From an uncultured Clostridia bacterium (GTDB lineage Bacteria; Bacillota; Clostridia; Christensenellales; UBA1242), in the NCBI GenBank assembly GCA_944372355.1, contig CALVYS010000003.1, positions 28 through 64,027 of the forward strand: a stretch of DNA of 64,000 nucleotides, written 5' to 3'. Below the pieces are notes generated by a model. The model was not told the DNA's origin, did not search any database, and saw nothing but the letters and a program-made list of their open reading frames with translations. Of this stretch, positions 10,358-60,447 are shown one piece after another (position 1 is the stretch's first letter; each line of letters starts with the position of its first letter). A program made the position numbers and the translations under genes.

Positions 10358-10430
10358 AAAAATCCTCTACATAATCATTCTACTCATCAAAAAAAAATGT
10401 GTGCATGAAAAATTTTTCTGGCACACAAGG

Positions 10431-10459
10431 TTGAATGGGCGGCTTTTGGAGTTTAAAAT
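10431..10459 (+). promoter_or_regulatory. Sigma-A-type promoter of the phage-like operon
   Basis: TTGAAT (10431-10436), 17-nt spacer, TAAAAT (10454-10459), about 27 nt upstream of the GTG start. Confidence 0.6.
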
Positions 10460-10485
10460 GCCGTTAAAGCAGACAGGAGGGAAGC

Positions 10486-10809
10486 GTGAGCGAACTTGAC
10501 GAGAAGAAGCTTAAAGATGCGCTCATCAAAAAAGCGGTTGGATATGATGCCAAGGAAGAGGTGAAAGAGTTTGTGGTTGACGAAGAGGGCAGAGAGGTGC
10601 TTTCCAAAAAAAAGGTCACCAAAAAGCATTATTCGCCAGACTTATCGGCCTTAAAGCTTGTGCTGGACAGATATTATTCTGATTTGACTGCTGAGTTTGA
10701 AAACATGACAGAGGCCGAACTTCTTCAAGAAAAGGCCCGACTGTTGCAACTTTTAGAGGAGGAGAGAAAAAGTGCAAATCGAAAAATGCAAGCACCCGAC
10801 CAAATGTGA
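10486..10809 (+). CDS. Terminase small subunit-like / DNA-packaging helper protein
   Basis: GTG start after AGGAGGG; first gene of the operon, 107 aa. The AVGY...KE / PDLSALKLVL pattern and coiled-coil tail resemble small terminases of Firmicute phages. The call rests on position and resemblance only. Confidence 0.5.
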   Translation: MSELDEKKLKDALIKKAVGYDAKEEVKEFVVDEEGREVLSKKKVTKKHYSPDLSALKLVLDRYYSDLTAEFENMTEAELLQEKARLLQLLEEERKSANRKMQAPDQM

Positions 10810-10993
10810 TTTTGTTGGGTGCAACAACCTTGCAGACTATCAATTTTCCACAAAAGGCTTCTTAAAACGAGAGCTCGCGTTTTGCGAAACTTGCTTGAAA
10901 GAGATGTATGTGGAAATCGGCAAACTGCAAGTGCCAAAGGCGGTGGAGTCGCCATTTAAATTGCCAAAACGGCTGAAAAGGGAGGAGAAATGA
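10772..10993 (+). CDS. Small Cys-containing (possible zinc-ribbon) protein
   Basis: GTG start after GGAGGAG; 73 aa; Cys at C-x5-C-x4-C ... C-x2-C. It overlaps the upstream ORF by 38 nt and the portal start by 4 nt. Confidence 0.5.
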   Translation: MQIEKCKHPTKCDFVGCNNLADYQFSTKGFLKRELAFCETCLKEMYVEIGKLQVPKAVESPFKLPKRLKREEK

Positions 10994-12846
10994 AAAAGAT
11001 AACAAAGGAAGAAGAAGCGATAGTTAAAAGCGTGATAGACGATTTTAACGCAAGGGCACATGCCCGCAAACCATTTGAAACTCAGTGGCAAATGAACATG
11101 AATTTTTACATGGGCAATCAGTTTTGCAACATTGGCTATGGTGGAACTTTGGAAGATCAAGACAAGCAATTTTTTTGGGAGGAGCGTCAGATTTTCAACC
11201 ACATCGCGCCACTCGTGGAAGTGCGCCTGGCAAAACTTTCACAAATCAAACCAAAGGCCACGGTGCTTCCGGCCTCCAATGATGAGCGTGATGTTTACAC
11301 TGCCAAGGTCTCTAAAAAGATTTTGGATTCTTTATCTGCAAAGCTTGGCCTTTCTCAAAAAATTGGAGAGGCGATGCAATGGAGTGAAGTTTGTGGCACC
11401 GCTTTTTACAAAGTGTCGTGGAATCCAAAACTAGGGCAAGTTGTGGCGATGGACGGTCAAGCGCCAATACGAAGTGGTGAAGTTGAAATCACCGTTTGCT
11501 CGCCATTTGAAATCTATCCAGACAGCTTCACTTGCACCGACATCGACAAATGCCAAAGCATCATTCATGCCAGGGCTGTGAGTGCAAAACAAATCAAGGA
11601 CATCTATGGTTTTGATGTGGAAGGCAGCGACATCAACATTTTCTCACTCAGCTCAACGAGTGTGGGTTTTGGCGGCCTTGGATATTCAAGCACAGCGCCA
11701 AAGGTTTGCCAGGGGGTAAAAAAGGATAGCGCGCTTGTTATTGAAAGATATGAGCGTCCAAGTGCTGCACACAAAAACGGCAGGCTCACCATCGTGGTGG
11801 GCGGCAGACTGTTTTATGATGGAGATCTGCCTTATGCGATTGGAAAAGACGGCGTGAGAGATTTTCCGTTTATTCGCCAAGTCAGCATCGGCCAAATTGG
11901 CAGTTTTTGGGGAAGCAGCATAATCGACAGATTGATCCCAATCCAACGCGCTTACAACAGTGTTAAAAACAGAAAGCATGAGTTTTTAAATCGATTGACC
12001 ATGGGAGTTTTGACGGTTGAAGATGGCTCTCTCGACATTGAAAATTTGGAAGATGAAGGTTTGTGCCCTGGGAAAATTTTGGTTTACAGACAGGGCTCGA
12101 CAGCTCCAAAATTTTTGGATTCAGAAAACCTTTCCAGCGATTTTGAAAAAGAAGAAAGCATGCTTTTGGAAGAATTCCGAAACGTCAGCGGTGTGAGCGA
12201 AGTCTTGGACGCCGATTATGTTTCAACAAACCTTTCCGGAGTTTCTTTGGAACTTATGCTTGAACAGGACGAGCTTCGCTTAAAAACCTCGGCAGAAAAC
12301 GTCAAGCAATGTCTTAAAGCTGTCAGCCAGATGGTGCTGAGACTTTACAAACAATTTGCATTGATCCCGCGCCTTGCAAGAATTGTTGGCGATCGCGGAG
12401 AAGTGGAGATGTTCTACTTTAATTCAAGCGACATTTCCAGCGATGACATTGCCCTTGAAACAGAAAATGAGCTTGGAGAAAGCCTGGCAAGTCGCAGACA
12501 GATGGTGTTTGATTTGCTTAATGCCGGCCTCTTGTCCGATGATGACGGCAAGTTGAGCGCTCGCATGAAAGTCAAGGTGCTGGAACTTTTGGGACTTGGC
12601 ATATGGGAAAATGCCCAGGATCAAAACGAGTTGCATCTTAAAAAAGCTGAAAATGAAAATTTGGCTATGCTTAATGGAGCTGATGCCAAAGTGCTGGAAA
12701 TCGACGAACACAATTTGCACATTGATCGCCACATCGCGTTTATGCTTGGTGGAGATTATGAAGAAAAGAGTTTGGTTGACAAAAATCTGGAAGAGAGATT
12801 TTTGCAGCACATCAGACAGCACAAAAAACTTTTAAAGGAGAATTAA
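10990..12846 (+). CDS. Phage portal protein
   Basis: 618 aa. The N-terminal region ARKPFETQWQMNMNFYMGNQF is typical of portal proteins, and the gene sits immediately before the scaffold and capsid genes. Confidence 0.8.
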   Translation: MKKITKEEEAIVKSVIDDFNARAHARKPFETQWQMNMNFYMGNQFCNIGYGGTLEDQDKQFFWEERQIFNHIAPLVEVRLAKLSQIKPKATVLPASNDERDVYTAKVSKKILDSLSAKLGLSQKIGEAMQWSEVCGTAFYKVSWNPKLGQVVAMDGQAPIRSGEVEITVCSPFEIYPDSFTCTDIDKCQSIIHARAVSAKQIKDIYGFDVEGSDINIFSLSSTSVGFGGLGYSSTAPKVCQGVKKDSALVIERYERPSAAHKNGRLTIVVGGRLFYDGDLPYAIGKDGVRDFPFIRQVSIGQIGSFWGSSIIDRLIPIQRAYNSVKNRKHEFLNRLTMGVLTVEDGSLDIENLEDEGLCPGKILVYRQGSTAPKFLDSENLSSDFEKEESMLLEEFRNVSGVSEVLDADYVSTNLSGVSLELMLEQDELRLKTSAENVKQCLKAVSQMVLRLYKQFALIPRLARIVGDRGEVEMFYFNSSDISSDDIALETENELGESLASRRQMVFDLLNAGLLSDDDGKLSARMKVKVLELLGLGIWENAQDQNELHLKKAENENLAMLNGADAKVLEIDEHNLHIDRHIAFMLGGDYEEKSLVDKNLEERFLQHIRQHKKLLKEN

Positions 12847-12847
12847 A

Positions 12848-13462
12848 ATGGAAGAAGAAAAAACTTGGGAACAACCACAAGAGGAACAGGCAGATGCCGA
12901 TGAAAAGGCGATTGAAAACAGTGCCGCTAGTGAAAGTGGCTCCCAAGCACAAGGCGAATTTGGAAAGTTCAAGTCGGCGGAGGCTTTGCTGGCAGCTTAC
13001 AACGCACTTGAAGCCGAATTCACCAGAAAAAGTCAAAGGCTGAGTGAAATTGAGAAGGAGCAAGCGCAATCAACAACCGCGCTCGATCCCAAACAGGTTG
13101 AAAGCGAATTGAATGCGTTTCTTTCGAAAAGTCAGGAGGCTGCGCCATATGCTGATGAGCTTAAAAAGATGGCTTTAAAGCAAGATGGCAAACCCGATTT
13201 TGACAAACTCTACGCAGCTTTGGCAGTTGCCAAGCTTGAAAGTGGCGAGTCAAAAAAGGAAAACCCAATCATTCAAAAATATGTTTTTCAAGACGAGGAA
13301 CTTAAAAATTTCGTGGTCGAGAATTACATGAAACAGCTCAAAAATCAAAGACCACCGATTGTCATCAACAGCGATGTTGGAGAAAGAGTGACCGGTCAAA
13401 AACCGGCCACTCCAAAATCGCTAGAAGAGGCAAAAAAGTTGGTTGAGGAGCTGTTTAGTTAA
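12848..13462 (+). CDS. Phage scaffolding protein
   Basis: Acidic, helical, low-complexity 204-aa protein between the portal and capsid genes, with a strong AAAGGAG RBS. Confidence 0.6.
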   Translation: MEEEKTWEQPQEEQADADEKAIENSAASESGSQAQGEFGKFKSAEALLAAYNALEAEFTRKSQRLSEIEKEQAQSTTALDPKQVESELNAFLSKSQEAAPYADELKKMALKQDGKPDFDKLYAALAVAKLESGESKKENPIIQKYVFQDEELKNFVVENYMKQLKNQRPPIVINSDVGERVTGQKPATPKSLEEAKKLVEELFS

Positions 13463-13481
13463 AATTTAAAAGGAGGAAATT

Positions 13482-14720
13482 ATGGCAACAGTTACTTTGG
13501 AGAGTGCCGACAATGCGTTAAAAACCGTTTACCTTGGTGTCATTGCAAACCAACTCAACGTTTCAGCAAATCCATTGCTTACAAAAATTAAAAGATCAAC
13601 CAAAGACATCTGGGGCAAAGAAATCAGAAAACTTGCTCCTTATGGCATCAATGGTGGTGTAGGGGCAGGAACCGAAACCGGTGTGCTTCCTTTCGCTGCA
13701 AGCAACAACTATGCTCAGTTTGTTGCAACATTAAAAAACCTTTATGGAAGAATCGAACTTTCTGACAAGGCAGTGAGAGCTTCTGCAAACAATGCAGGTG
13801 CCTTCGTCAATCTTTTACAAGACGAAATGGAGGGGTTGGTTAAAGCAAGCATCTTCAACCTTGGAAGAATGCTTTATGGTGACGGCAGCGGGCTGCTTGC
13901 AACCTGCTCGGGGATTGCCGACGGCCTCATCTCTTGCGACAAGGTCAACAACCTTATCGAAGGAATGAGCATCGACATTTTCAACGGTTCAACACCTCTT
14001 GTAAATCGTGCAAGAGTCACATATGTTGACAGATTGAACAAAAAATTCGCCATCGACAGAACTCTTTCCAGCGTTGCAAGTGGCAGCCAGGTTTATGTTC
14101 AGTCTTCAAAAGCCAATGAAATCACAGGTTTGGGAGCAATTTTCTCAGATTCTGAATATCTTTATGGCTTAAAAAGAGCTGATTACAAATGGCTTAGCCC
14201 ATACACTTCAACTGCTGCAACCGAGGTTTCAGACACATTGATCCAAACTGCAATCGACTTTTTGGAGGAAAACGCTGACTCTCGCATCAACTTTATCGCA
14301 TGCTCTGCACAAGTTCGCCGTGCTTATCAAGCATATCTTGCTGCATATCGTTCAAACGTTGATGTCATGACTTTGGAAGGCGGCTTTAAAGCCATCTCTT
14401 ACAATGGCATTCCACTTGTTACAGACAGATTCGTTGATGAAGACACCATGTATCTGCTCAACACTGACGATTTTGTTTTGCACGAACTTTGCGATTGGAA
14501 GTGGCTGGAAGGCGAGGGCGGAAGAGTGCTCAAACAAAATGCAAACTATCCAACCTACACTGCAACACTCGTAAAATATGCTGAGCTCATCTGCGACAAA
14601 CCAAATGGACAAGCCAAGATCAGCGGCATCAAAGGCACAGTTACAAGCCCATTCACTTTCACTTGCAACTGCACCAACAGCTCTGACGCGTCAGGAACTG
14701 ACTCTGGATCAGAAGGCTAA
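13482..14720 (+). CDS. Phage major capsid protein
   Basis: 412 aa, with the best RBS of the operon (AAAGGAGG). Position follows the scaffold gene, the N-terminal pattern is typical of major capsid proteins, and an attenuator-like hairpin follows. Confidence 0.75.
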   Translation: MATVTLESADNALKTVYLGVIANQLNVSANPLLTKIKRSTKDIWGKEIRKLAPYGINGGVGAGTETGVLPFAASNNYAQFVATLKNLYGRIELSDKAVRASANNAGAFVNLLQDEMEGLVKASIFNLGRMLYGDGSGLLATCSGIADGLISCDKVNNLIEGMSIDIFNGSTPLVNRARVTYVDRLNKKFAIDRTLSSVASGSQVYVQSSKANEITGLGAIFSDSEYLYGLKRADYKWLSPYTSTAATEVSDTLIQTAIDFLEENADSRINFIACSAQVRRAYQAYLAAYRSNVDVMTLEGGFKAISYNGIPLVTDRFVDEDTMYLLNTDDFVLHELCDWKWLEGEGGRVLKQNANYPTYTATLVKYAELICDKPNGQAKISGIKGTVTSPFTFTCNCTNSSDASGTDSGSEG

Positions 14721-14736
14721 TTAACAAATTTTAGGT

Positions 14737-14766
14737 GGGGCAAAAAATTGCCCCTTCTAAATTTTT
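14737..14766 (+). terminator. Possible partial terminator/attenuator after the capsid gene
   Basis: GGGGCAA-aaaa-TTGCCCC followed by TTCTAAATTTTT; the U-tract is interrupted, so termination is probably leaky. Confidence 0.35.
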
Positions 14767-14776
14767 AGGAGAAAAA

Positions 14777-15097
14777 ATGAAAAAACAAATTTTGCTTGAA
14801 AACGACCCTTTTTACATCTCTTCACGCATTAAAGAGGTGGACGAAAACTATTTTTTTGTTTTCAATTCAAAAGAAAAAAGATTCGAACTTCACAACAGTG
14901 CACAAAAGGGCTCAACTTTTGCTTTGGTTGTGCCGTATGAAGTGCTGGACGAGCGGGCGATTTTTCTTGCGCGCAAAACGAGAAAGGAAAACATTGACAA
15001 GTTGGTGCGCGAAATGGACGAGGAAAATCGAAGGCGCGAAGAGAGGCTGAAAAAGCAGGCGTTCGAGCAAATGAGAGAGGTGATATATGAAAGTTAA
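14777..15097 (+). CDS. Hypothetical phage head-associated protein
   Basis: ATG 14777 after GGAGAAAAA; 106 aa with a charged C-terminal helix. The listed 14735 start lies in the hairpin region. Confidence 0.55.
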   Translation: MKKQILLENDPFYISSRIKEVDENYFFVFNSKEKRFELHNSAQKGSTFALVVPYEVLDERAIFLARKTRKENIDKLVREMDEENRRREERLKKQAFEQMREVIYES

Positions 15098-15638
15098 TGA
15101 CGCAATAAAGCTCAGTTGCGATTTTGTAAATTTGCCGGAGCTTAAATCGTTTGTTGGCACAGAAAACGGCGATGACATTCAAAAAGCCAAGCTAAACGCG
15201 CTTTTGAGGTGTTTAAACCTGGCTTATGAAGAAATTTGCACCGAATTTTTGCCAATTTTGAAAAAAGAAGCGATTGTCACTACAAATGGTGAGTTTTATT
15301 TTTCCGACCTTTCGCAGCCGCTTTGCGCAATCATCTCGCTGAAAACGGCGGACGGAAGAAATATAAAGTATTCTCTTTCTTCCGACCATATTTCTTTTGA
15401 AGGTGACAGCGCAGTGCTAGTTTACGCTGTCAAACCTGACGAACTTGAATTTGGCGATGAAACGAAAGTGCTCTTTCCAGAAAGAGTGCTGGCCTATGGC
15501 ACTGCGAGAGAGTTCTTTCTCATGCAAGCCCTTTCTGATGAAGCGCTGATTTTTGAAAACCGATTTAAAGAGAGTCTTGAAAATCTGGTTCGCAAAAAAT
15601 CGGCTTTGATTTGGCCACGCAGACAATGGATTAGATAG
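15087..15638 (+). CDS. Putative head-tail adaptor/connector protein
   Basis: 183 aa; overlaps the upstream ORF by 11 nt. Position and size resemble head-completion (P22 gp4-position) proteins. No motif-level support. Confidence 0.4.
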   Translation: MKVNDAIKLSCDFVNLPELKSFVGTENGDDIQKAKLNALLRCLNLAYEEICTEFLPILKKEAIVTTNGEFYFSDLSQPLCAIISLKTADGRNIKYSLSSDHISFEGDSAVLVYAVKPDELEFGDETKVLFPERVLAYGTAREFFLMQALSDEALIFENRFKESLENLVRKKSALIWPRRQWIR

Positions 15639-15648
15639 GGAGGTGGCA

Positions 15649-17124
15649 ATGTTCAAGAAAAAAAATCTGACAGCAAAAGAAACCGAGAAAATGACGGTGC
15701 GGTTTTCGGATTTTTCAAGCTGGGAGGACATCAGCGACAGCAAGCGCAAGAGCACCGACACAAAAGAGTGCTACAACTTTGTCATAAACCGAGGCGATCT
15801 GGAAGCTGGTTATGGTTTCAAACAGTTGGCGCTGCCAAATTCGACAACCGATCTGACTGATTACAGTTTTGAAGTTGATGCCACCGAGGTTTTTGGCATT
15901 TGGATGGCGCCAATTTACGATTCCTACTCAGGGCAGGATAAATACTATGTTTTTTATTTAGACGAAGGCAAAAATGTCTACTTTTTCAACATTTTCAGCA
16001 GCGACAAGTTTATGTATGACGAAGATGTTCAGTTTAACGAAATCCCATATGCCGCACCTTTTAGGATAAACGGCATTGACACGCTGTTGTTTTCGTCTCC
16101 AAGCGATCAAACAGTTGGACTCAGCACAAGCGGCCCGCAGGTTTACAACAACATTCCAAAGTTTCTTTCGGGGTGTTGGCACAAAAACTATTTCTTTTTG
16201 GTCACCACTGGCGATCAAAACGGCCTTGTCTATTCAACTGAGACGATTGCAAATTGGAATGATAACAACAAGTTTGATGTCGAAATTCCAGAGGTGCGCG
16301 GGGGACTTAAAGCTGTCATATCCTTTCACGACGATCTTTTCATTTTTCGTGATTATGGCATAATCAAACTTTCGCTGTATGGAAGTGGCGAAACCAAATT
16401 TGACTTGCAAAATGTCTACTATTCTGCATCTTACATCTATCCATCTTCGATTGCAAAAATTGGAGATTACATCATGTTTGCGACACAAGATGGAGTTTAC
16501 AGCTTTGATGGATCAAACGTCAAAAAGGTGGAGCTCCCATTTGAAAAACTGTTAAATTCCACCAGAAACACTTCGGTTGCCGCAGCATGTTTTGAAAACA
16601 AGTATTTTCTTGCTTGCAAGATCGATTTTGACGACGGAGAGGAGCTTGGGGTTGAAAGCGGAAGTTTTGAAAACAACGCGATCATCGTGTATGATTTGGA
16701 AAACAAAGCTTGCACTCTGATGCGTGGAATCGATGTCAGACAGTTTTGTGTGATCAACACTCCTTATCTGCAAAAACTTTGTGCCATCTTTCGCGGAGAT
16801 AAAAAGGCAAAGGTTGGCGAGCTTACATGCGATGGAAGCTTTTTTGGAACTCAGCTTAAAAAAGTGTGGCGCTCACCACGCACAGATTTCGGTTTCGCGG
16901 GCAAATTAAAAAGAATGATGTCTGTCTCTGTCAAACCACACACGGTTTGTGAAATTGTCATTGAAACAGAAGAGGGAGAAAGCATATCCATCAGTTGCAA
17001 AGACTCTGAAACCACACAAAGATTTCTGGTGAACGCTTTAAGCAAAAGTTTTGTTATTTCCATCATCTCGCAAAGCGCCGGCAGCATTGCTTGCCCAGAA
17101 TTTGAGATTAAGGTTGTTTCATGA
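15649..17124 (+). CDS. Putative neck/tail-hub structural protein
   Basis: ATG 15649 lies 5 nt after GGGAGG (the GTG at 15643 is too close). 491 aa, beta-rich. Position and size resemble P22 gp10-type hub proteins. Inference only. Confidence 0.4.
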   Translation: MFKKKNLTAKETEKMTVRFSDFSSWEDISDSKRKSTDTKECYNFVINRGDLEAGYGFKQLALPNSTTDLTDYSFEVDATEVFGIWMAPIYDSYSGQDKYYVFYLDEGKNVYFFNIFSSDKFMYDEDVQFNEIPYAAPFRINGIDTLLFSSPSDQTVGLSTSGPQVYNNIPKFLSGCWHKNYFFLVTTGDQNGLVYSTETIANWNDNNKFDVEIPEVRGGLKAVISFHDDLFIFRDYGIIKLSLYGSGETKFDLQNVYYSASYIYPSSIAKIGDYIMFATQDGVYSFDGSNVKKVELPFEKLLNSTRNTSVAAACFENKYFLACKIDFDDGEELGVESGSFENNAIIVYDLENKACTLMRGIDVRQFCVINTPYLQKLCAIFRGDKKAKVGELTCDGSFFGTQLKKVWRSPRTDFGFAGKLKRMMSVSVKPHTVCEIVIETEEGESISISCKDSETTQRFLVNALSKSFVISIISQSAGSIACPEFEIKVVS

Positions 17125-17414
17125 TTTTGATCGATCCAAAACATTACAAATTTTTAAACAAAATGTCTTGCAAAGGAGAAGTTATGGCTACTGATAAATT
17201 TATTTCAAACTTAGATGATGACAAATCGGATTTAATAGAGTTCGCAAATGAGGAGGCGGTCGATCTTTATGCCAAACAAAAAAAGGCATATGAAATCACA
17301 TTGGCTTTTTTGAAGCAGTTTGACAGAGAAGTTGCACTCAGCTTTCTTGCCACCAATTTGCAACTCAGGGGCGAGCTTGGCGTGTTTTACGATCATCTTT
17401 TGGAAGAGCTTTGA
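17121..17414 (+). CDS. Hypothetical small phage protein
   Basis: ATGA overlap with the upstream stop. An alternative start at ATG 17184, after AAAGGAG, gives 76 aa (MATDKFISNLDDD...). Confidence 0.5.
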   Translation: MILIDPKHYKFLNKMSCKGEVMATDKFISNLDDDKSDLIEFANEEAVDLYAKQKKAYEITLAFLKQFDREVALSFLATNLQLRGELGVFYDHLLEEL

Positions 17415-17668
17415 TGCAACTTTGGGAAGAGATTGTAAGTGTGATAATAAGCAACGGCATTTTTGCAGTGCTTTTTGTCATACTTTTTTGCTATCAACTT
17501 AAAGACGGAAAAAGGCGAGAGGAGAAATATCAAAAAACCATTGAGGATTTGACAGAACATCTTGGTGTGATTGATGAGATCAAAGCTGATGTTGAATATT
17601 TGAAAGAAAACATCGCACCTAAAAGGAGAAATAAAGATGAATCTCAAAAATCTAGTCAAGTCGTATAG
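17414..17668 (+). CDS. BhlA/UviB-family holin-like protein
   Basis: TGATG start/stop overlap. An N-terminal TM (IISNGIFAVLFVILFCYQL) is followed by KDGKRREEKYQKTIEDLTEHL and a coiled coil, closely resembling BhlA/UviB proteins. Confidence 0.7.
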   Translation: MQLWEEIVSVIISNGIFAVLFVILFCYQLKDGKRREEKYQKTIEDLTEHLGVIDEIKADVEYLKENIAPKRRNKDESQKSSQVV

Positions 17669-17930
17669 CTTTTGGACAGCGCTTGCAGGTGCACTTGTCA
17701 TTTTGATAAACTCGATTGGAAACATCTTTGGCTTTCAAATTGAAGAAAAACTTGTCAGTGACATAGTTATGGCAATTGCTGGCGTTTTGGTGGCTTTTGG
17801 TGTTGTCACATTGCCATCTTCGACAAAGGATAAAACTCAGCAACAAGAAACTGAAACAAATGAAGATCCGGCTCAAAATGAGCAGCAGGAAGATGAGCAA
17901 TCAGATGACAAGCAAAATCCATCTGTCTAA
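17637..17930 (+). CDS. Phage holin (phi LC3-like, two TM)
   Basis: AGGAG RBS. FWTALAGALVILINSIG and VMAIAGVLVAFGVV helices with a highly acidic C-terminal tail. Overlaps the previous ORF by 32 nt. Confidence 0.65.
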   Translation: MNLKNLVKSYSFWTALAGALVILINSIGNIFGFQIEEKLVSDIVMAIAGVLVAFGVVTLPSSTKDKTQQQETETNEDPAQNEQQEDEQSDDKQNPSV

Positions 17931-17939
17931 ACGCAAAAT

Positions 17940-17968
17940 AGGGAGGGTAAATCGCCCTCCCTTTTTTT
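17940..17968 (+). terminator. Strong rho-independent terminator closing the phage-like operon
   Basis: GGGAGGG-taaatcg-CCCTCCC followed by T7. Confidence 0.85.
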
Positions 17969-17979
17969 ATCGTATTAAT

Positions 17980-18008
17980 TTGACAAAAATCGGGAAATAT
18001 GTTATTAT
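17980..18008 (+). promoter_or_regulatory. Sigma-A-type promoter
   Basis: TTGACA (17980-17985), 17-nt spacer, TATTAT (18003-18008). Confidence 0.6.
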
Positions 18009-18028
18009 ACAAATATATGGAGGTTGGC

Positions 18029-18688
18029 ATGGCATTATTTGGTGGAAAGACAAACGCAGAAGAACGCAAATATGTTTTAAACGATGGAAAGCTCGAATAC
18101 TTTTTGACTGAGCCGGAACTCGACGAAATCGATTACTTTACGATTGCGGACGATAAAAACAGTTTGCAGGCTGTTATGAAAAATGAAAAAGTGTATCCTC
18201 TCAAACTTTCAACATTTGGTGGGTTTATGTTTGATGAAGAACCAGATTCAACAGCTGAAAATTCCGCTTGCAAGCGATTGGAAAGAGCCGGAGTGGAAGC
18301 CGAAAAAATGTTGACAGAACAAAATGCTTTTCCAACCAATACACAGTTTATTCCTGAAATTGGAGCTTTCCGTCAATATGAAAATGGAAAGATTTCGTAT
18401 TACAGCTTGATCGGTGACAGGATTGACAACATAACCCTTTATACTTTGGGTTTGAATTCACTTGTTGCAAATGCACCTTTCATTGTAAGCAATGGCACTC
18501 CAAAAACCTACTGTCAAAAACCACAAAACATCTCTTCGCTTTGGCAAGCATATGAAACCTACGCGTCATGTTTTCCGGCGAACAAAACTGCTCTTATAAC
18601 TCAAGAAATGTATTTGACAAACATTTCAGATCTTTTGAGCAGGGAAGTGAGCGATAAAAAATATTCTAAACAGATTTTGGACAGATAA
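18029..18688 (+). CDS. Hypothetical protein (219 aa), own promoter and terminator
   Basis: ATG 18029 lies 5 nt after GGAGG (MALFGGKTNAEERKY...). No signal peptide or recognisable motif. Confidence 0.55.
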   Translation: MALFGGKTNAEERKYVLNDGKLEYFLTEPELDEIDYFTIADDKNSLQAVMKNEKVYPLKLSTFGGFMFDEEPDSTAENSACKRLERAGVEAEKMLTEQNAFPTNTQFIPEIGAFRQYENGKISYYSLIGDRIDNITLYTLGLNSLVANAPFIVSNGTPKTYCQKPQNISSLWQAYETYASCFPANKTALITQEMYLTNISDLLSREVSDKKYSKQILDR

Positions 18689-18715
18689 AAAAAACGGGCA
18701 TGAGCCCGTTTTTAT
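18688..18715 (+). terminator. Rho-independent terminator
   Basis: ACGGGC-atga-GCCCGT followed by a T-run. Confidence 0.8.
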
Positions 18716-36447: not shown

Positions 36448-37374
36448 ATGACATTTAAAAACTATTTAAAGCTTGCCGTTGCAAACTTTGATAAAACATG
36501 GAAACTTGTTTTATATCGCATCATAGTTTGGGTGGTTTTGATTGCACTTATGGCACCTTGCTACAATGTCTTAAAAGATGTGACATTAAGCGTTTGGGAT
36601 TTGGATCTTTTCACCGCTTTTGCAGGGAATGGGCTTTTTTATGGAGTCAATGTCACGCCTGTGTTTGTTTCTGTTTTGCAAGTTGCAATCACATTTTTGA
36701 CCACACTTTTCACATCTTACACTGCGGTTGGCGTTTATCTTGTAATTGTCCTCTTTTTGCTTCGTCCATTTCTTTTAAACATTGGCAGATTTGTCGTTGA
36801 CGAGATGATGTATGGTTTCATGTCAAGCCATGCCAAACTTGGTTTCAGCTCAACATTTGTCCGCACCTTGAAAAGGTCGATCCCTTATGCCTTTTTCAGA
36901 ACGCTTTATTGTTTGCCATTCAACTTTGCTGTTGCCAACGCCTTCTACGGCCTTGCAATGGCAAATTGGGGCGCAGCCAGCCTTGCAATGCCGTTTGTCT
37001 TTTTGCTTGTGGCAGCCATCGTGCTTTCACTCAAACAAGCGCTCATTTTGGGTTGGGGCCCAGCGATGGTCGTTTATGGCGAAAATGTGTTCAAATCCTT
37101 CCGTTTGGGAATAAAGGCTGTAAGCAGAAATCTGCCTGTGGCATTCATCTTTTCATTCTTTGCTTATTTTGCATTGATTTTGGTGGCACTTGGCCTTGGG
37201 CCTTTCAGTTTGATCGTGTTGATCCCTCTGTTTGAGGTGGTTTCTTCCATGTTTGAGACGATGTTCTTTTTTGCCTGCCAGGGCATGAGATATTATATTG
37301 ACAAAGACACGGTGCTCTCTTCAAAAAAACTTGAAGAGCAAGACACCATGAGCAAAGTAAAGTTTTTGTTATAA
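36448..37374 (+). CDS. Polytopic membrane protein, unknown function
   Basis: 308 aa with at least 6 hydrophobic helices; no motif recognised. Confidence 0.6.
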   Translation: MTFKNYLKLAVANFDKTWKLVLYRIIVWVVLIALMAPCYNVLKDVTLSVWDLDLFTAFAGNGLFYGVNVTPVFVSVLQVAITFLTTLFTSYTAVGVYLVIVLFLLRPFLLNIGRFVVDEMMYGFMSSHAKLGFSSTFVRTLKRSIPYAFFRTLYCLPFNFAVANAFYGLAMANWGAASLAMPFVFLLVAAIVLSLKQALILGWGPAMVVYGENVFKSFRLGIKAVSRNLPVAFIFSFFAYFALILVALGLGPFSLIVLIPLFEVVSSMFETMFFFACQGMRYYIDKDTVLSSKKLEEQDTMSKVKFLL

Positions 37375-37456
37375 AAACAGCTGCAAATTTTGTTTTAGAC
37401 AAGCTTTAAAAAAGCTTGAATTTTAAAATTTTTTAAAAAAACTTAAAAGGAGAAAA

Positions 37457-39112: not shown

Positions 39113-39705
39113 TGAAAACGCTTAAAGAGTTAAGAGCCTATGCCCAAAGCACTATGACGCCGATAATTCGGCCGCAAAGTGCCAAAATTTTGAAAGAGCT
39201 CTGTCAAACTCGGGCACCAAAACGCATTTTGGAAATCGGCACTGCGATTGGCTATTCGGCCTCGCTTATGCTTTTGTATTGTCCAAAAGCAGAAGTTGTG
39301 ACGATAGAAAAGGATCCGCAGATGATCGCGTTTGCCAAGCAAACTTTCAAACTGAGAGGGCTTGAAAAACGCGTCACTTTGATGCAGACAGACGCAATGG
39401 TCGCTCTTGAAAAATTGTCGAGTGATGGCGAAAAATTCGACCTGATTTTTCTCGATGGGCCAAAGGGGCAGTATTTCAAATATCTGCCACTGTTAAAGAG
39501 GTTGTTGGCATCAAAAGGTGTTTTGCTTGCTGATGACGTGCTCTTTCATGGTTATGTCAAAATGCCAGGCGATCCTGGGCACAAACATCGGACGATAGTT
39601 GCAAGTTTGAGGTCTTTCATATCAGATTTGCAGCAGGACAAAGCTTTCATAGCCAAACTTATTGAAATTGAAGATGGTTTGCTTTTGTGCGAACGGTTAA
39701 ATTAA
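39112..39705 (+). CDS. Class I SAM-dependent O-methyltransferase (YrrM/TrmR-like)
   Basis: ILEIGTAIGYSA SAM-binding motif and FLDGPK; start overlaps the rnj stop. Confidence 0.8.
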   Translation: MKTLKELRAYAQSTMTPIIRPQSAKILKELCQTRAPKRILEIGTAIGYSASLMLLYCPKAEVVTIEKDPQMIAFAKQTFKLRGLEKRVTLMQTDAMVALEKLSSDGEKFDLIFLDGPKGQYFKYLPLLKRLLASKGVLLADDVLFHGYVKMPGDPGHKHRTIVASLRSFISDLQQDKAFIAKLIEIEDGLLLCERLN

Positions 39706-45190: not shown

Positions 45191-45280
45191 GTAATCAAAG
45201 TTCCTTATAAAAATTTCAGTATTTAGTATACAACAAAATTAATTAATAATCAATTGATTTTTGCTAAGAATAATACTATT

Positions 45281-54850: not shown

Positions 54851-55011
54851 CTTTTTTTTGCTAAAAATTTAAAATCATTTTATTTTCAAAATTACAGCCG
54901 TTTTTATATATTTTGCCGTCATAAAAGCGTCAGAAATTAGCCAATTTAGCGTCATTTTTCGACAATTTTGTAAAAAAATCGCAAAAACTAAAAAAATTTT
55001 GGCATTTAAAT

Positions 55012-55040
55012 TTGACTATTATTAATATGATTTTTATAAT
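55012..55040 (+). promoter_or_regulatory. Near-consensus sigma-A promoter with a ~170-nt leader before the regulator gene
   Basis: TTGACT (55012-55017), 17-nt spacer, TATAAT (55035-55040). Confidence 0.6.
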
Positions 55041-55218: not shown

Positions 55219-55734
55219 ATGCAAAATCATGTTTGGGGCAAAACTTTGCTTTCGGTTTATCGTTACTTGGAAAGGATAGCAGATGCTATTGACAACATAA
55301 TTGAAAAAAAAGCTGTGCAAACATCTTCCATGCTGGGAAGTGATGCTCTTTCACATAACACGCTTGCGCTTGCAAACAAAATCATCGATCTTTCAGAAAG
55401 AAAAGTAAAACTTATCAACATCAAATTGTTGACAGAACAGGCTTTGGCAGCGATGGATCCAAAAGGCGCCAAAATTTTGATTATGAAATATTTTGACAAT
55501 GCCTCTTGTGAAGAAATTTTGTCTGCGCTTTCTCTTTCAAGGAGAACATATTTCCGTAGAATAGGCGAAATGGAAGCGGCGTTTGAAGCAAGCTGTGCGA
55601 TGTTTGGCTTTCCAATGGAGAGGCTGGATTCCTATCTTGCAAATGAGGCCTGGATCATGAATGTCAAAGCCTCTTTTCAAAAAGGGGTGGAAAGCCCGTT
55701 GCAGCTGAGTCGAAGCGAGAGAATGTGTTTATAG
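55219..55734 (+). CDS. Sigma-70 region-4-like HTH protein / phage late-gene regulator-like
   Basis: 171 aa. ILIMKYFDNASCEEILSALSLSRRTYFRRIGEMEAAFEA matches the ...RTYFR...A...F HTH pattern of small phage-associated sigma-like regulators of Firmicutes. Family-level call only. Confidence 0.55.
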   Translation: MQNHVWGKTLLSVYRYLERIADAIDNIIEKKAVQTSSMLGSDALSHNTLALANKIIDLSERKVKLINIKLLTEQALAAMDPKGAKILIMKYFDNASCEEILSALSLSRRTYFRRIGEMEAAFEASCAMFGFPMERLDSYLANEAWIMNVKASFQKGVESPLQLSRSERMCL

Positions 55735-56502
55735 GTCATCTTCGTTGAATTCGTAATAATCCTTGTGTCCTTTTCGAGAAAAAATTCTGCGTCGTGAGGT
55801 TTTGAGTTTTTTGGAAGGGCTCAGCAGCAAATACAAAATCACAAGGCATGGCAGGCTCACGGCCAGTATGATTATCGCGATCACCGTGTCGCTCAAACCT
55901 CCATTTTCTGGCGTTTGCGAAGAAAATTGCAACTCGCCTGTGATTTCAGGAAAGTATTCTGTGTTTTCTGTAAAACCATCAAAGATGTCACAATAATATG
56001 AAAAAGCATAGCCAAAAGTGCTGACCCCATCGATGGTCGCATTGCAGTAGTACCAGATATTTGTCGAGTTTGGAAAAAGTTCTTGACCAGTTGTGGTGCC
56101 GTAAAGGGTGTATTCCTCCAAAAAGTCAAGTTTTCCAAGTGTCGCACTCGAATTTGTTGGTTGAGACTGCAAATTGAGGCCGTTGTCATTAAAGTTTCTA
56201 AAAACTTCGTTAGGGTAAGGTGAAGTTGGAACTCCGTCCATTGGTGTCACTTCATCTTTTTTTACGTAGCCATACAGGTCCAGATATTTGGCGCGATAAA
56301 AATCTCCCTCTTGGCCTATCAGCAAAACAAAATAGGTGTTTGGCAGGGTGAAAAGCGAGCTGGATTCGCTTGCCGAGGAGTAAAAGTTTGCTTGGTTTAA
56401 AACTTTGGCATAGTATGTTAAAGTTTCCTCTGCTTTGACAGAGATGGAAGGCAGAGAGGGGGTTAGAAATGCAATCAACAGCAAAAACACTAATTTTTTC
56501 AT
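55729..56502 (-). CDS. Exported, C-terminally membrane-anchored protein with SH3b-like repeats
   Basis: Signal peptide (LLLIAFLTPSLPSISVKA). Two SH3b-like segments are present (e.g. GDFYRAKYLDLYGYVKKDEV), followed by a C-terminal TM and a basic tail. Confidence 0.6.
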   Translation of the reverse strand: MKKLVFLLLIAFLTPSLPSISVKAEETLTYYAKVLNQANFYSSASESSSLFTLPNTYFVLLIGQEGDFYRAKYLDLYGYVKKDEVTPMDGVPTSPYPNEVFRNFNDNGLNLQSQPTNSSATLGKLDFLEEYTLYGTTTGQELFPNSTNIWYYCNATIDGVSTFGYAFSYYCDIFDGFTENTEYFPEITGELQFSSQTPENGGLSDTVIAIIILAVSLPCLVILYLLLSPSKKLKTSRRRIFSRKGHKDYYEFNEDDL

Positions 56503-56566: not shown

Positions 56567-58000
56567 ATGTCAGAATTACTAGAAAAGCTTAAACTTTTAG
56601 AGCGTGAGCTCGAACGCCGGCGTCCCAATGCCAATCTAGCAAACTACAACACAGGTGCAAAAGTGCATTTAAAGCAACTGGAATTTCACAAATGCAAAAA
56701 GCGCAACCGCTGGGTGTTTGGTGGAAACAGAAGTGGGAAGAGCGAATGTGGAGCGGTGGAGGTCGTATATATGGCTCGCGGCATACACCCATATCGCGAA
56801 AATCGCAAAAATGTTTCTGGTTGGGTGGTCAGTCTTTCAAAACAGGTGCAAAGAGATGTCGTTCAGCAAAAGATCTTGCATTATTTGAACCCAGCTTGGA
56901 TCGAAAAGGTTGTGATGCAAAGCGGAAGTGAGGGTTCGCCGGAGACAGGAATCATCGACTTTATTTTGATAAAAAATGTGTTTGGAGGGCTGAGTAAAAT
57001 TGGCTTTAAAAGTTGTGATCAGGGTCGAGACAAATTCCAGGGCACTTCACTTGATTTTGTCTGGTTTGACGAGGAGCCTCCGTTTGAAATCTATCGTGAA
57101 TGTCAAATGCGTGTGTTGGACAGAAGAGGGGATATTTTTGGCACTATGACGCCGCTTAAAGGATTGAGCTGGGTTTACAATGAAATATATTTAAACGCCT
57201 CCGGTTCACCTGAAATTTGGTGTGAACATATGCAGTGGGAGGACAACCCTTTCATTTCAAAAGAGGAAATCGCATTGCTTTCACAAACCATGTCGGAGGA
57301 AGAGCTTGAATCGCGAAAATATGGCAAGTTCACCGCTCTTGGCGGCTTGGTGTATCCAGAATTTGATCCAAACATTCATGTTATAGAGCCTTTTGAAGTG
57401 CCACAGGAATGGCAGGACAACATTTCGATTGACCCTGGGCTTAACAATCCGCTTTCCGCACATTTTTATGCCGTGGATTATGATGGAAATGTGTTTGTGG
57501 TGGCGGAACATTTTGAAGCCAAAAAAGATGTCGCATACCATGCAAAAAAGATCAAAGCACTGGCCGAAAAGTTGAATTGGCACTATGCTCCAAATGGCAT
57601 GCTTTCTGCTTTGATCGACAGCGCTGCCTCGCAGCGCACGCTTGCCAGCCAAAAAAGTGTGGTCGACCTTTTCTATGAGCACGGAATTTTGACCAATCCC
57701 AAAGTGAACAAGGACATGTTTTCTGGAATTTCCACAGTCAAGCGCTATTTGAAAGACGGTGAGGGAAAAACACATCTTTTCATATTTAAAAATTGCGTAA
57801 ATCTTATTCAAGAATTTAAAACCTATTTCTGGGGAGATGCGGACTTGCCTATTAAAAAAGATGACCATGCGTTGGACGAGCTTCGATATTATCTCATGAC
57901 AAAACCTTCGCCAAATCACTCATTGCCAGAAAAGAGTGCGATAGAAAAGGACAAGGAACGGTTGATCAGAAAATTGCGCTTGAAAAACAAAATGTTTTGA
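56567..58000 (+). CDS. Phage terminase large subunit (intact, orphan; PBSX/XtmB-like)
   Basis: Walker A FGGNRSGKS, Walker B LDFVWFDEEP, coupling motif GTMTP. Nuclease acidic residues sit in ISIDPG, LIDSAA and KKDDHALDELRY. 477 aa with a GGAGGAG RBS. Confidence 0.85.
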   Translation: MSELLEKLKLLERELERRRPNANLANYNTGAKVHLKQLEFHKCKKRNRWVFGGNRSGKSECGAVEVVYMARGIHPYRENRKNVSGWVVSLSKQVQRDVVQQKILHYLNPAWIEKVVMQSGSEGSPETGIIDFILIKNVFGGLSKIGFKSCDQGRDKFQGTSLDFVWFDEEPPFEIYRECQMRVLDRRGDIFGTMTPLKGLSWVYNEIYLNASGSPEIWCEHMQWEDNPFISKEEIALLSQTMSEEELESRKYGKFTALGGLVYPEFDPNIHVIEPFEVPQEWQDNISIDPGLNNPLSAHFYAVDYDGNVFVVAEHFEAKKDVAYHAKKIKALAEKLNWHYAPNGMLSALIDSAASQRTLASQKSVVDLFYEHGILTNPKVNKDMFSGISTVKRYLKDGEGKTHLFIFKNCVNLIQEFKTYFWGDADLPIKKDDHALDELRYYLMTKPSPNHSLPEKSAIEKDKERLIRKLRLKNKMF

Positions 58001-58068: not shown

Positions 58069-60447
58069 ATGAAAAAGTTTTACGCATTCGTTTTAACATT
58101 TTCACTTGCTCTTTTGGCGCTGACTCCACTTTCTTTGGAGATGGGTTCTGCACGCGCCGATGATGTGAGCTCAGTTGAAATCAGCTCAGCGGCAGATTTG
58201 CAAGATGTTGCAGTTGCAGTCAATGGTGGCACTGATGATTATTCTGGCAAGGTTTTGACTTTGACAGATGACATAACTATCACTGGAAACTGGACGCCTA
58301 TTGGCAGCGTCTCAAATCCATTTAGGGGCAGTTTAGATGGGGCAGGCCATTCGATAAACATTGAAAACGCCAATGTCAGCACTGAGGCCTATCAAGGGCT
58401 TTTTGGTTATGCAGAAGGCGGAGAGTTTAAAAACGTGCAGCTTGTTGGTCAAATCATGTCCGATGCCAATGGCGACTTGACAACAACTTACGCCACTGAT
58501 CAGATCTTTGCAGGAATGCTGATGGGCTATGGCAGCAATGTCGTGATTGAAAGCTGTGAGCTTTTAAGTGAGCAAAACCAAACGGTGAAGATCAGAAACA
58601 TTTCAACCATTGGCGCACTTGCAGGAAAGCTTTCAAGCTCCACGGTAAAAAATGTGGTCTCATATGCAAATCTAAGTTTTGATTATGAACTTGCAAACAC
58701 CTGCCGAGTAAGAATTGGCGGCGTGATTGGCGAAGCTGAATATGTCAACATTGAAAAATTGGGTTCGTTTGGAACGACAAATCTTACATACAGTTCAGTC
58801 ATTTCGCCACAAGTTGCATCAACTTTCTATGTTGGTGGAATGATTGGAGATTTAAAAGGTGGCAGCATCATTGACAGCGTGCAGGGCTCTGCGGTTGGCA
58901 TAACAAGCAGAAATGATGTGGACAGCTATGTTTGCGGCTCGATTTTTGGAATCATTACAAACAGTCCAGCAAATGGCAACCTTCAATCGATTGCTTATGC
59001 TCCAAGCGGCACCGGATCGGAGCAACTTGGCATCTGCGGTGAAGGAGAGTTGCAAAGCGCTGATTACATAGTTCCGGTTTCTGAACAAGTGATCTTTACA
59101 ACTTCATTTTACACAAATGGCACTCAGGATTTTGCTTGGAAACAAGACGCTGAAATCTGGGATTTTGAAAGCACCTGGGTGATCGTTTCAGAAAATTCGA
59201 GTCAGCTTCGTCTGCAAATCTTCCAATTTTTTGACATAACACTCTCTGGCGCAGTGGATTCCAACAATTTGCTCGTCAGCCTCTCGTCTCAAACACAAAA
59301 TGAGCGCACTCAATATGGCAAGCAAAAACAGTTGCAGGCAAGGTTCCAGGGCGAAAATGAAGGCATTTTGGTGGACAATTCAAAATATTATGAAATCTCC
59401 GAAATTCGCCGAAACGGCAGCTTGTTAAGTTATGTCACCTTTGAAGAGGGCCCATCTGGTGAAATGATTTGGCAGGGTGAAGATGTGACTCTGACAAAAA
59501 CTCAACAGGCAGGCTCAACAGTCTACACTTTGACAGTGACAGCTTCCAGTGCGACTGAGGGCGAGTATTCCTTCGTACTTTCGCCAATCAACTATCCAGC
59601 ATACATCGTTGCAGGGCAGCTTCAAGACGGAACAATTCAAACCGATGCAAATGGTGGAGTGAGGTATCGCGGAAACGCTGATGAAAATGAATCCATCATT
59701 CGCTCGCTTTACAAAGGCAACACGATCGAGGTTGAGGCCATAGGTCATTCAACCTATGCTTTCGGTGGTTGGACGCTTTATTATTTAAATTCACAAGGTG
59801 ATGTCTCTTACAATGGGCAAAGATGGTCCGCTGCGTCAAGCGATCTGTTTGAAAGCACTGCAAATCCACTTTCAATCACCTTTGGAGGCACCAACACTTC
59901 TGAAACTGCATTCAACCAAACCTTCTTGCTTGTTGCAAGTTTTGTCAGTGATCCTTGCACGTTGACTTTCAGTTATGATTCAAACTTTATCACCAGAGTT
60001 GAAGTCAATGGACAAAATGTGAGCGGCAGTGGAACTTCGGTCATCTTAGACAAAAATCAAAACGTGACATTGAGGATTTACATGAGCGAAAACGCCTCGT
60101 TAAATGCCGACAACTTGCTCTCTTCGATTAGAAGTCTGTTCGTTTCAGATTCTTCAAGATTGAATCACGAAGTGTTCAACGATCTTGACGGCACAGGGCA
60201 GGTGGTGCATGAATTCACATTCTCAACTTCTGCAATAAACTATGCCACCTCATCTCAGTTCAACCTGAATTTGCGTGCAACTGAGGGTGTAGATGATGGC
60301 CAACCTGACAACACGATTTGGATTGTGGTTGGCGTTGTTGGCGGTGTGATCTTGCTTGCAGCGATTGGTTTGACCGTTTGGCTTGTTCTCAGACGCAAAG
60401 CGCTCAACAACACACGAAATGATGATTACAAGCGTTATTACTACTAA
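58069..60447 (+). CDS. GLUG-motif surface protein with C-terminal TM anchor
   Basis: Signal peptide ending SARA-DD. NPFRGSLDGAGHSINIEN..YQGLFGY and repeated [IV]GG[VM]IG segments, then beta-rich domains, then the TM IWIVVGVVGGVILLAAIGLTVWLVL followed by RRK. Confidence 0.75.
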   Translation: MKKFYAFVLTFSLALLALTPLSLEMGSARADDVSSVEISSAADLQDVAVAVNGGTDDYSGKVLTLTDDITITGNWTPIGSVSNPFRGSLDGAGHSINIENANVSTEAYQGLFGYAEGGEFKNVQLVGQIMSDANGDLTTTYATDQIFAGMLMGYGSNVVIESCELLSEQNQTVKIRNISTIGALAGKLSSSTVKNVVSYANLSFDYELANTCRVRIGGVIGEAEYVNIEKLGSFGTTNLTYSSVISPQVASTFYVGGMIGDLKGGSIIDSVQGSAVGITSRNDVDSYVCGSIFGIITNSPANGNLQSIAYAPSGTGSEQLGICGEGELQSADYIVPVSEQVIFTTSFYTNGTQDFAWKQDAEIWDFESTWVIVSENSSQLRLQIFQFFDITLSGAVDSNNLLVSLSSQTQNERTQYGKQKQLQARFQGENEGILVDNSKYYEISEIRRNGSLLSYVTFEEGPSGEMIWQGEDVTLTKTQQAGSTVYTLTVTASSATEGEYSFVLSPINYPAYIVAGQLQDGTIQTDANGGVRYRGNADENESIIRSLYKGNTIEVEAIGHSTYAFGGWTLYYLNSQGDVSYNGQRWSAASSDLFESTANPLSITFGGTNTSETAFNQTFLLVASFVSDPCTLTFSYDSNFITRVEVNGQNVSGSGTSVILDKNQNVTLRIYMSENASLNADNLLSSIRSLFVSDSSRLNHEVFNDLDGTGQVVHEFTFSTSAINYATSSQFNLNLRATEGVDDGQPDNTIWIVVGVVGGVILLAAIGLTVWLVLRRKALNNTRNDDYKRYYY

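Follow-up and report, generated by a model that had tools for sequence, protein, structure and literature searches.

A candidate gene transfer agent-like element of podovirus origin, split over two chromosomal loci in Christensenellales

The closest described counterparts of the element reported here are gene transfer agents (GTAs) and other phage-derived particle systems of bacterial chromosomes. FpGTA of Faecalibacterium prausnitzii, the first podovirus-like GTA, is encoded in two operons and forms ~40-nm particles that contain 8.4-8.9 kb of host DNA (Borodovich et al., Nat Commun 2026, PMC12946183). The same study, by nanopore sequencing of virus-like particles from faeces, also detected GTA-like packaging of Christensenellaceae genomes, with peaks at 4.07 kb for HGM11616 and at 6.3 kb for QANA01, to which no locus was assigned (PMC12946183, section 9, Supplementary Data 1); GTA loci were sought in that work only in metagenome-assembled genomes (MAGs) of Faecalibacterium, Gemmiger and Onthomonas (PMC12946183). 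The alphaproteobacterial GTAs, RcGTA and CcGTA, as well as BaGTA, are of siphovirus-like ancestry, and PBSX of Bacillus subtilis is a defective phage-like element of a Firmicute that resides at a fixed chromosomal site and packages about 13 kb of host DNA. Members of the Christensenellales are abundant in the gut, heritable and associated with health, and almost none of them have been cultured. Here we describe an element encoded in a stretch of 64,000 nucleotides (hereafter, the window) from an uncultured member of this order (lineage UBA1242; assembly GCA_944372355.1, contig CALVYS010000003.1, positions 28 to 64,027 of the forward strand). We interpret this element, with a probability of roughly 0.6, as an ancient, vertically inherited, podovirus-derived particle system that consists of a head, neck and lysis half and a half with the large terminase (TerL), and that is GTA-like, that is, a viriform.

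The two halves are a head operon and a TerL locus that lie ~39 kb apart and together span 49,962 bp of the window (Table 1), compared with 42-47 kb for the whole genomes of the nearest phages. A preliminary description of the head operon, made from the sequence of the window, considered it self-contained and devoid of TerL; neither statement holds, given that an intact TerL is encoded in the second locus and the operon accounts for just one half of an element that has been split. This conclusion follows from the gene order in relatives of the element, which come from species genomes and IMG/VR contigs and are denoted by L numbers (L002-L187 etc.). The distant copies in IMG/VR, with major capsid proteins (MCPs) 46-65% identical to that of the window, are contiguous, in the order act171, mem257 (on the opposite strand), TerL, o1, o2, portal, scaffold, MCP, o6, o7, o8, DUF7934, BhlA, holin. 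Christensenella-type genomes (e.g., Christensenella sp. UBA5893) share this order, with a homologue of surf792 between TerL and o1 (L038, L043, L046, L048 and L079-L081). The unsplit clusters found in many relatives occupy ~13-15 kb. Among the loci with a portal gene, 47 are split and adjacent to the ABC importer genes, like the window; 44 have TerL at most 4.5 kb upstream of the portal gene; and 14 have other layouts, about half of these with TerL further upstream and surf792 before o1, and the rest with no TerL within the fetched flank. In one relative, the MCP and TerL loci are on the same 280-kb contig, 54 kb apart. The TerL-side genes stay together in relatives even when the outer flanks are different: act171 is linked to TerL in all relatives examined, mem257 is always located between act171 and TerL on the opposite strand, and surf792 follows TerL in L082-L085 although the outer flanks differ. 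In addition, TerL, portal and MCP have the same nearest cultured phages, namely, Arthrobacter Jasminevirus, Cellulosimicrobium phage DS1 and Caudoviricetes sp. MW202795, to which they are 21-32% identical overall (~22-26% for portal and MCP, ~29-32% for TerL).

The course of the split can be traced from the position of the RNase J gene. The element lies just upstream of this gene in the unsplit Christensenella-type genomes and in the distant host represented by L123 alike; in the window, RNase J is encoded at 37457-39112, between the two halves. Combined with the unsplit gene order, this position implies that an ancestral single cluster was broken in the window's clade between surf792 and o1, and the pieces were moved; the displaced RNase J neighbourhood suggests that this clade underwent two or more rearrangements. 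The segment of the window at 36448-39705, which encodes an unassigned 308-aa protein, RNase J and an O-methyltransferase, has a counterpart directly downstream of the unsplit element in L036, L043, L046, L057, L080 and L123.

In at least 80 species, the element is inherited together with its host. When a single genome of each GTDB species was scanned with MCP as the query, 214 species gave a match, and in the best 80 of these loci the gene order is identical (80/80), with the MCPs 64-81% identical. Among the copies that are not cut by a contig end, the open reading frames (ORFs) are intact and conserved in length for portal in 70 of 70, for MCP in 80 of 80, for the nozzle in 72 of 72 and for the adaptor in 75 of 75. 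Within a species, across three contigs with 98.4-98.8% nucleotide identity, the ratio of nonsynonymous to synonymous substitution rates (dN/dS) is 0.08-0.09 at an unsaturated dS of about 0.05. Among the five closest species, where dS is saturated, the ratio is 0.04-0.23, the same range as for groEL, the ABC ATPase gene, gpr and murI. The protein distances are correlated with the corresponding distances of the ABC ATPase that the host encodes next to the element (r = 0.93 for portal, 0.83 for MCP and 0.92 for the nozzle; Mantel p <= 0.001), with slopes near 1 for MCP (0.95) and portal (1.21) and a steeper one for the nozzle (1.54). The divergence of L123 from the window is likewise similar for host and element, with RNase J 49%, MCP 51% and portal 46% identical. 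The GC content and codon usage of the element genes do not differ from those of host genes. These data show that the structural genes descend with the host and are under purifying selection. The proposal of the preliminary description that the operon belongs to a domesticated, possibly split particle module and not to a decaying prophage is borne out by the invariant order, the intact copies and the dN/dS of about 0.09, and the comparison that it suggested, of the same ABC junction in related genomes, yields the 47 loci mentioned above and dN/dS well below 1. Of the features that it regarded as contrary signs, att sites were not found, the complete copies in orthologous loci are all intact, and the related cultured phages are only distant.

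The second line of evidence comes from the modules that the element lacks. Among the window ORFs subjected to family scans, which included most of those of at least 110 aa (Pfam, PHROGs and NCBIfam families), the phage-like genes are limited to head and neck genes, TerL, the activator and the holins, and, in agreement with the preliminary description, there is no integrase, repressor, replication gene, tape measure, tube or sheath protein, or endolysin. As it also stated, no convincing att-like direct repeats border the head operon, where only short, AT-rich chance repeats occur. The other ORFs scanned are housekeeping genes and encode, among others, GyrB and GyrA, RNase J, MreB, MurG, iPGM, GreA, TsaE and DinB. 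The element, then, consists of phage-derived structural and packaging genes without replication, integration and lysogeny modules, a composition characteristic of GTAs. Because there are no replication, integration and immunity genes and the element is spread over 50 kb, the packaged DNA would most likely be host DNA, which would make the element GTA-like. Taken together, these features make it very probable that the element has been domesticated as a particle system under selection; we lean slightly toward the view that, in the manner of a GTA, it also packages host DNA and transfers it.

Table 1. Features of the two loci of the element, in window coordinates
Feature	Position	Strand	Evidence and remarks
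Promoter-like region of the head operon	10419..10459	+	TGGCAC box, 6 nt, TTGAAT (-35), 17 nt, TAAAAT (-10); putative function
o1, 107 aa, small protein, weakly TerS-like	10486..10809	+	Partial phrog_309 match, E 9e-5
o2, 73 aa, four-Cys, zinc-ribbon-like	10772..10993	+	KCD..GC...FC..C kept across 70 loci
Portal, 618 aa, P22/SU10 type	10990..12846	+	PF16510 (P22_portal) E 4e-12; phrog_156 E 2e-33
Probable scaffolding protein, 204 aa	12848..13462	+	Position between portal and MCP; acidic helical composition; in 76 loci
Major capsid protein (MCP), 412 aa, podovirus type	13482..14720	+	NF033394 capsid_maj_Podo E 1e-84; phrog_14242 E 2e-54
o6, 106 aa, head/neck protein without assigned role	14777..15097	+	ATG start in public gene calls; in 75 loci
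o7, 183 aa, probable head-to-tail adaptor	15087..15638	+	Sub-threshold SU10_adaptor match, E 1.6e-3; between MCP and nozzle
o8, 491 aa, tail nozzle/hub, P22 gp10/T7 gp12 fold	15649..17124	+	AlphaFold (AF2) model and Foldseek
o9, 97 aa, C-terminal remnant of ~300-aa coiled-coil DUF7934 protein	17121..17414	+	Weak DUF7934 match, profile positions 277-322 of 333
BhlA-family holin-like protein, 85 aa	17411..17668	+	PF10960 E 4e-16; in 70 loci
Phage holin, 97 aa	17637..17930	+	PF04531 E 3e-6; phrog_297 E 2.5e-12
Intrinsic terminator, end of head operon	17940..17962	+	9-bp stem with 6 GC pairs, then T run; strong
Promoter-like site upstream of act171	55000..55039	+	TGGCAT, 6 nt, TTGACT, 17 nt, TATAAT; a lead only
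act171, 171 aa, phage late transcriptional activator-like, sigma-70 region-4-like	55219..55734	+	phrog_36 E 1e-9; phrog_248 'transcriptional activator' E 2e-6
mem257, 257 aa, anchored C-terminally in the membrane, with a signal peptide and tandem SH3-like domains	55729..56502	-	Weak SH3_3 match; 16 homologues aligned
TerL, 477 aa, intact large terminase	56567..58000	+	Terminase_6N E 1.6e-12; phrog_2 E 7e-32
surf792, 792 aa, accessory to the element in this order; anchored C-terminally in the membrane, with a signal peptide and a large beta-rich ectodomain	58069..60447	+	phrog_30905 (unknown function) match at the N-terminus only

The head operon consists, as originally described, of 11 tightly packed plus-strand ORFs at 10486-17930, most with overlapping stop and start codons. 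On one side lie the ATPase and permease genes of an ABC importer, and on the other rpsT, gpr and the genes for a racemase and GroEL; the family scans confirm these flanks, too. The original identification of the portal, MCP, BhlA and holin genes stands, and the strong terminator reported to close the operon is present. The portal protein scores 45.7 bits against PF16510 (cutoff 26.1) and 33.5 against PF23899 (cutoff 30). Other assignments had to be qualified. The TerS-like character ascribed to o1 derives from a single match that is both partial and weak; the motif ALLKKALGY..VEEY...KKKVTKKH..PD is kept in 26 homologues of o1, which in the unsplit relatives follows TerL directly. The three proteins that had been considered to be of neck or hub size can now be distinguished as an unassigned 106-aa protein (o6), a probable adaptor (o7) and a nozzle (o8). 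No family match was obtained for o2 in the Pfam and PHROG scans or for o6, and the scaffold matched no family, Prp included, in the Pfam, PHROG and NCBIfam scans.

The role of o7 as the head-to-tail adaptor is probable, to judge from its size, its position and the sub-threshold matches of its homologues, of which 6 of 27 hit SU10_adaptor, the best at E 9e-4 and all below the threshold; a single-sequence AF2 model of o7 was unusable (predicted local distance difference test score, pLDDT, 33). For o8, the model, built on 32 homologues, reaches a pLDDT of 89 and a predicted template modelling (pTM) score of 0.89. Every one of its best Foldseek matches is a tail nozzle or hub of a podovirus, namely, those of Pa223 (9nwi_Y; E 3e-20, template modelling score 0.73), VP1, GP4, P22 (gp10, 8eap_D; E 7e-14), SU10 and T7 (gp12), with 8zkk_O among the top entries. 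The predicted fold of o8 is that of a tail nozzle of the gp10/gp12 type. The small ORF o9 has a more specific identity than its first description implied: its full-length homologue in L123 matches DUF7934 at E 4e-70, o9 aligns with the C-terminal domain of this protein, and in unsplit genomes a DUF7934 protein of ~300 aa is encoded after the nozzle. It is the sole degenerate gene of the element, yet it is kept at about 97 aa in 8 genomes. The intact coiled-coil DUF7934 protein could be an analogue of the podovirus needle. PDB sequence profile searches with the nozzle, o7, o1, DUF7934 and act171 returned nothing significant, apart from weak matches of act171 to sigma region 4.

The promoter that had been proposed for the operon, TTGAAT-17-TAAAAT, is present at 10431-10459 and its position is conserved in relatives; its score is only 9/12, and sites of this kind are no rarer in the region than they would be by chance (19, against 14 expected). 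The arrangement GGCAC-N6-TTGAww-N17-TAAAAT upstream of o1 is conserved in the window's clade (L002-L015, L051, L054 and L071). A sigma-54 promoter was considered at this site, the TGGCAC box resembling a -24 element, and rejected: TTGA lies one base too far away from the box, and the GC of the -12 element is absent. The TTGAww-17-TAAAAT pair fits a sigma-A promoter, and TGGCAC is, therefore, treated as a possible activator box. The promoter arrangement upstream of act171 recurs in L082/L083 and in L095.

In the TerL locus, the Walker A, Walker B and nuclease acidic residues of TerL are invariant in 24 homologues, and the protein is as conserved as the capsid protein, with 68-85% identity among the top 120 of about 5,000 clusters. 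Such invariance and strong constraint suggest that DNA packaging is maintained. Both mem257 and surf792 combine a signal peptide, an ectodomain and a membrane anchor and, thus, cannot be built into cytoplasmic capsids; roles in reception, exclusion, sensing or lysis control are all possible. The anchors of both proteins are followed by a short, Tyr-rich tail (DYYEFNEDDL and DDYKRYYY, respectively). In the distant relatives L084/L085 (4364-5624), the TerL module lies just downstream of genes for a stand-alone Spo0A_C-domain protein and a LexA-like Peptidase_S24 protein, possible regulators that are absent from the window.

These assignments suggest a scheme in which act171, the sigma-region-4-like protein, would turn on the head operon from the conserved promoter with the TGGCAC box and the -35 and -10 elements. 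By homology, the scaffold, capsid and portal proteins would then form a procapsid, into which TerL, possibly with o1 and o2, would package DNA. The predicted adaptor and the nozzle, the latter recognized by its modelled fold, would close the portal and form a stubby tail. Finally, BhlA and the holin would permeabilise the membrane and release the particles, probably with the help of host autolysins, which we invoke because no endolysin is encoded at either locus.

Like FpGTA, the element comprises chromosomal, podovirus-like head and packaging genes in gut Clostridia, without replication or integration genes and in more than one locus, and includes a small TerS-like protein without an obvious DNA-binding domain; the DNA-carrying particles of FpGTA serve as the model for the function that we propose. 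The differences concern the capsid family and the layout. The FpGTA capsid protein RCH50849.1 is named as a member of the N4-gp56 family, whereas NF033394 capsid_maj_Podo is the sole NCBIfam match of the window MCP at E <= 0.1, N4-gp56 being absent. Operon I of FpGTA contains the genes for TerS, TerL, portal, a Prp-like protein and MCP, as opposed to the ancestral order TerL, o1, o2, portal, scaffold, MCP of the element; operon II contains those for holin, endolysin, baseplate, fibre and receptor-binding protein, whereas the head operon of the element has the holin genes at its end, and the window yielded no endolysin, fibre or receptor-binding protein. We file the element as a member of the GTA kind that is set apart from FpGTA by annotation only, and not as an FpGTA homologue. 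The report of FpGTA, notwithstanding its other capsid family and layout, supersedes the earlier view that the module is of a type not described for this kind of Firmicute (PMC12946183). No description of the Christensenellales cluster was found in the literature on GTAs of Christensenella or Christensenellales and of Bacillota.

With RcGTA, CcGTA and BaGTA, the element shares vertical inheritance, purifying selection and a multi-locus layout, which in its case may prevent packaging of the whole element, and probably also a dedicated transcriptional activator and lytic release. These agents differ from it in their siphovirus-like ancestry, long tails, unrelated protein families and host regulators such as CtrA and GafA, in contrast to the podovirus neck and the sigma-region-4-like phage activator of the element. 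PBSX, unlike the element, has a myovirus-like contractile tail, resides in a single locus, kills rather than transfers, and consists of unrelated families. The element also corresponds to the P22-like and SU10-like podovirus module, with which it shares the portal family (P22_portal/SU10_portal), the order of the portal, probable scaffold, coat, probable adaptor and nozzle genes, and the gp10/gp12 nozzle fold. The nearest cultured phages are, however, complete, with lysin, tail fibres, internal proteins and replication genes, all of which are missing from the element.

Several points weigh against the interpretation of the element as a GTA-like system. It is known here from genes and comparative data; the production of particles, packaging and transfer are predictions from these, and the same holds for o1 as a TerS, for o7 as an adaptor and for control of the promoter by the activator. 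With one mismatch allowed, the TGGCAC motif occurs 18 times in the window, compared with 13 expected, which is not significant. The saturation of dS limits the comparison between species. In some lineages (L123, L103/L187, and also L132, and L183 with L128), TerL is interrupted by large insertions. The DUF7934 gene is a remnant in the nearest relatives of the window and is absent in most other ABC-adjacent genomes, so that the tail may be incomplete and the particles unable to deliver DNA. Neither locus contains a recognizable fibre, receptor-binding protein, tailspike or endolysin gene. The element may account for the Christensenellaceae packaging seen in faecal particles; this link is circumstantial.

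The truncation or loss of the DUF7934 gene in the window's clade and the lack of fibre, receptor-binding and endolysin genes in both loci speak for the possibility that the element is domesticated but makes particles for a purpose other than gene transfer, such as lysis and release of extracellular DNA, bacteriocin-like killing, or packaging without delivery. The annotation of BhlA-family proteins as bacteriocin-related in PHROGs and the presence of two membrane or surface proteins, mem257 and surf792, among the conserved parts of the element are compatible with such a function as well. We consider it unlikely, although still a serious candidate, given the signs of maintained packaging in TerL, the intact portal and nozzle that in podoviruses form the conduit for DNA ejection, and the GTA-like packaged DNA of the same bacterial family in faecal particles (PMC12946183). 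A capsid-forming satellite akin to phage-inducible chromosomal islands (PICIs), with head and packaging genes of its own and tails borrowed from a helper phage, appears highly improbable. Capsid-forming PICIs, a group attributed to Alqurainy et al. 2023, reportedly carry head and packaging genes without long-tail genes, and the content of the element is similar, with its activator, TerS-like protein, TerL, portal, capsid, connectors and holin and without long-tail or fibre genes. A July 2026 preprint, moreover, judged satellite-like a 12.7-kb Butyricicoccaceae cluster of comparable content (activator, terminases, capsid genes, holin and endolysin), which might belong to the same family as the element. 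Such satellites are, however, strain-variable and helper-dependent and possess an integrase, replication genes and att sites, whereas no integrase, excisionase, primase or other replication gene, or att repeats were found in the element, which is distributed over two loci and 50 kb, has fixed chromosomal neighbours, diverges in concert with host genes across species and encodes its own nozzle and, hence, its own short tail. The same synteny, intact copies, low dN/dS and co-divergence that fit poorly with a mobile satellite bring the remaining alternative, a cryptic prophage remnant that decays without a function, close to refutation: the many missing modules of a complete phage, the truncated o9 and the TerL insertions in some relatives would suit it, but all complete copies at about 70-80 species loci are intact, dN/dS is about 0.09 at unsaturated divergence, the proteins diverge as much as their housekeeping neighbours, and the codon usage is host-like.

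If the element is indeed a conserved, order-wide, DNA-packaging particle system, it would be a major route of gene flow or lysis in the gut that has gone unrecognised, and the cluster would be a concrete genetic candidate for the GTA-like Christensenellaceae packaging in faecal virus-like particles (PMC12946183). The contiguous cluster, the cluster with the added surface protein, and the split cluster with the DUF7934 gene lost form a natural series that depicts a stepwise takeover of a podovirus by its hosts. The 49 matching IMG/VR contigs show that virus-prediction pipelines file such loci as viral contigs, and gut virome catalogues are inflated as a result. A bolder, tentative proposal, which we rate as possible rather than probable, is that of a second podovirus-derived GTA family, domesticated independently of FpGTA and much older and more widespread. 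In this scenario, the family would have resided beside rnj since before the split of Clostridia lineages with only 49% identity between their RNase J proteins, would occur in hundreds of Christensenellales species, would be the source of the unassigned Christensenellaceae packaging, and would possess its own control layer, formed by the sigma-like activator, the membrane SH3 protein and the surface protein, with prophages or defence islands inserted in TerL serving as on/off switches in some lineages.

Several observations on the relatives concern the insertions and the genes around the element. In L123 (3373-7260; IMGVR_UViG_3300029711_000209), two large serine recombinases and an Mtd_N (tropism-determinant) protein are encoded directly upstream of a TerL fragment with residues 276-471. 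On the 65-kb contig that contains L103 and L187 (IMGVR_UViG_3300001688_000618), TerL residues 1-318 and 293-468 are ~51 kb apart, and the insert carries genes for a type I restriction-modification methyltransferase and a Y-family polymerase. The TerL insertions could be excisable intervening elements that switch the particle system on and off, or they could simply inactivate it. In two IMG/VR loci, L104 (6720-15287) and L133 (5986-12760), the cluster seems to end after the capsid gene and is followed by defence genes, namely, type I restriction-modification HsdM and HsdR, an Mrr-ResIII fusion and a HATPase protein, an indication that, in some lineages, the neck half is invaded or replaced by defence islands.

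Downstream of the holin, o12 (17999-18688, 229 aa, no family match) was considered as a further member of the element and rejected, being poorly conserved, with 27-36% identity in only 3 loci. Within 17980-18713, it has the best sigma-70-type promoter match of the region, TTGACA-17-TATTAT with an extended TG, and a terminator of its own; given this separate promoter and terminator and the poor conservation, it is treated as lying outside the element. In sister-clade genomes (L016-L034 and others), the stretch 0-3.5 kb downstream of the holin repeatedly encodes, on either strand, members of two protein families, one of ~360-560 aa (24 genomes) and one of 590-736 aa (30 genomes). Neither family gave an informative match to PDB sequences or has a homologue in the window, and both could be further components or just conserved neighbours. 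Elsewhere in the window, at 45254-46089, two adjacent ORFs match the halves of the TauE/SafE sulfite exporter in permuted order (positions 115-237 in the first and 2-118 in the second) and may encode two half-size subunits or represent a rearranged gene.

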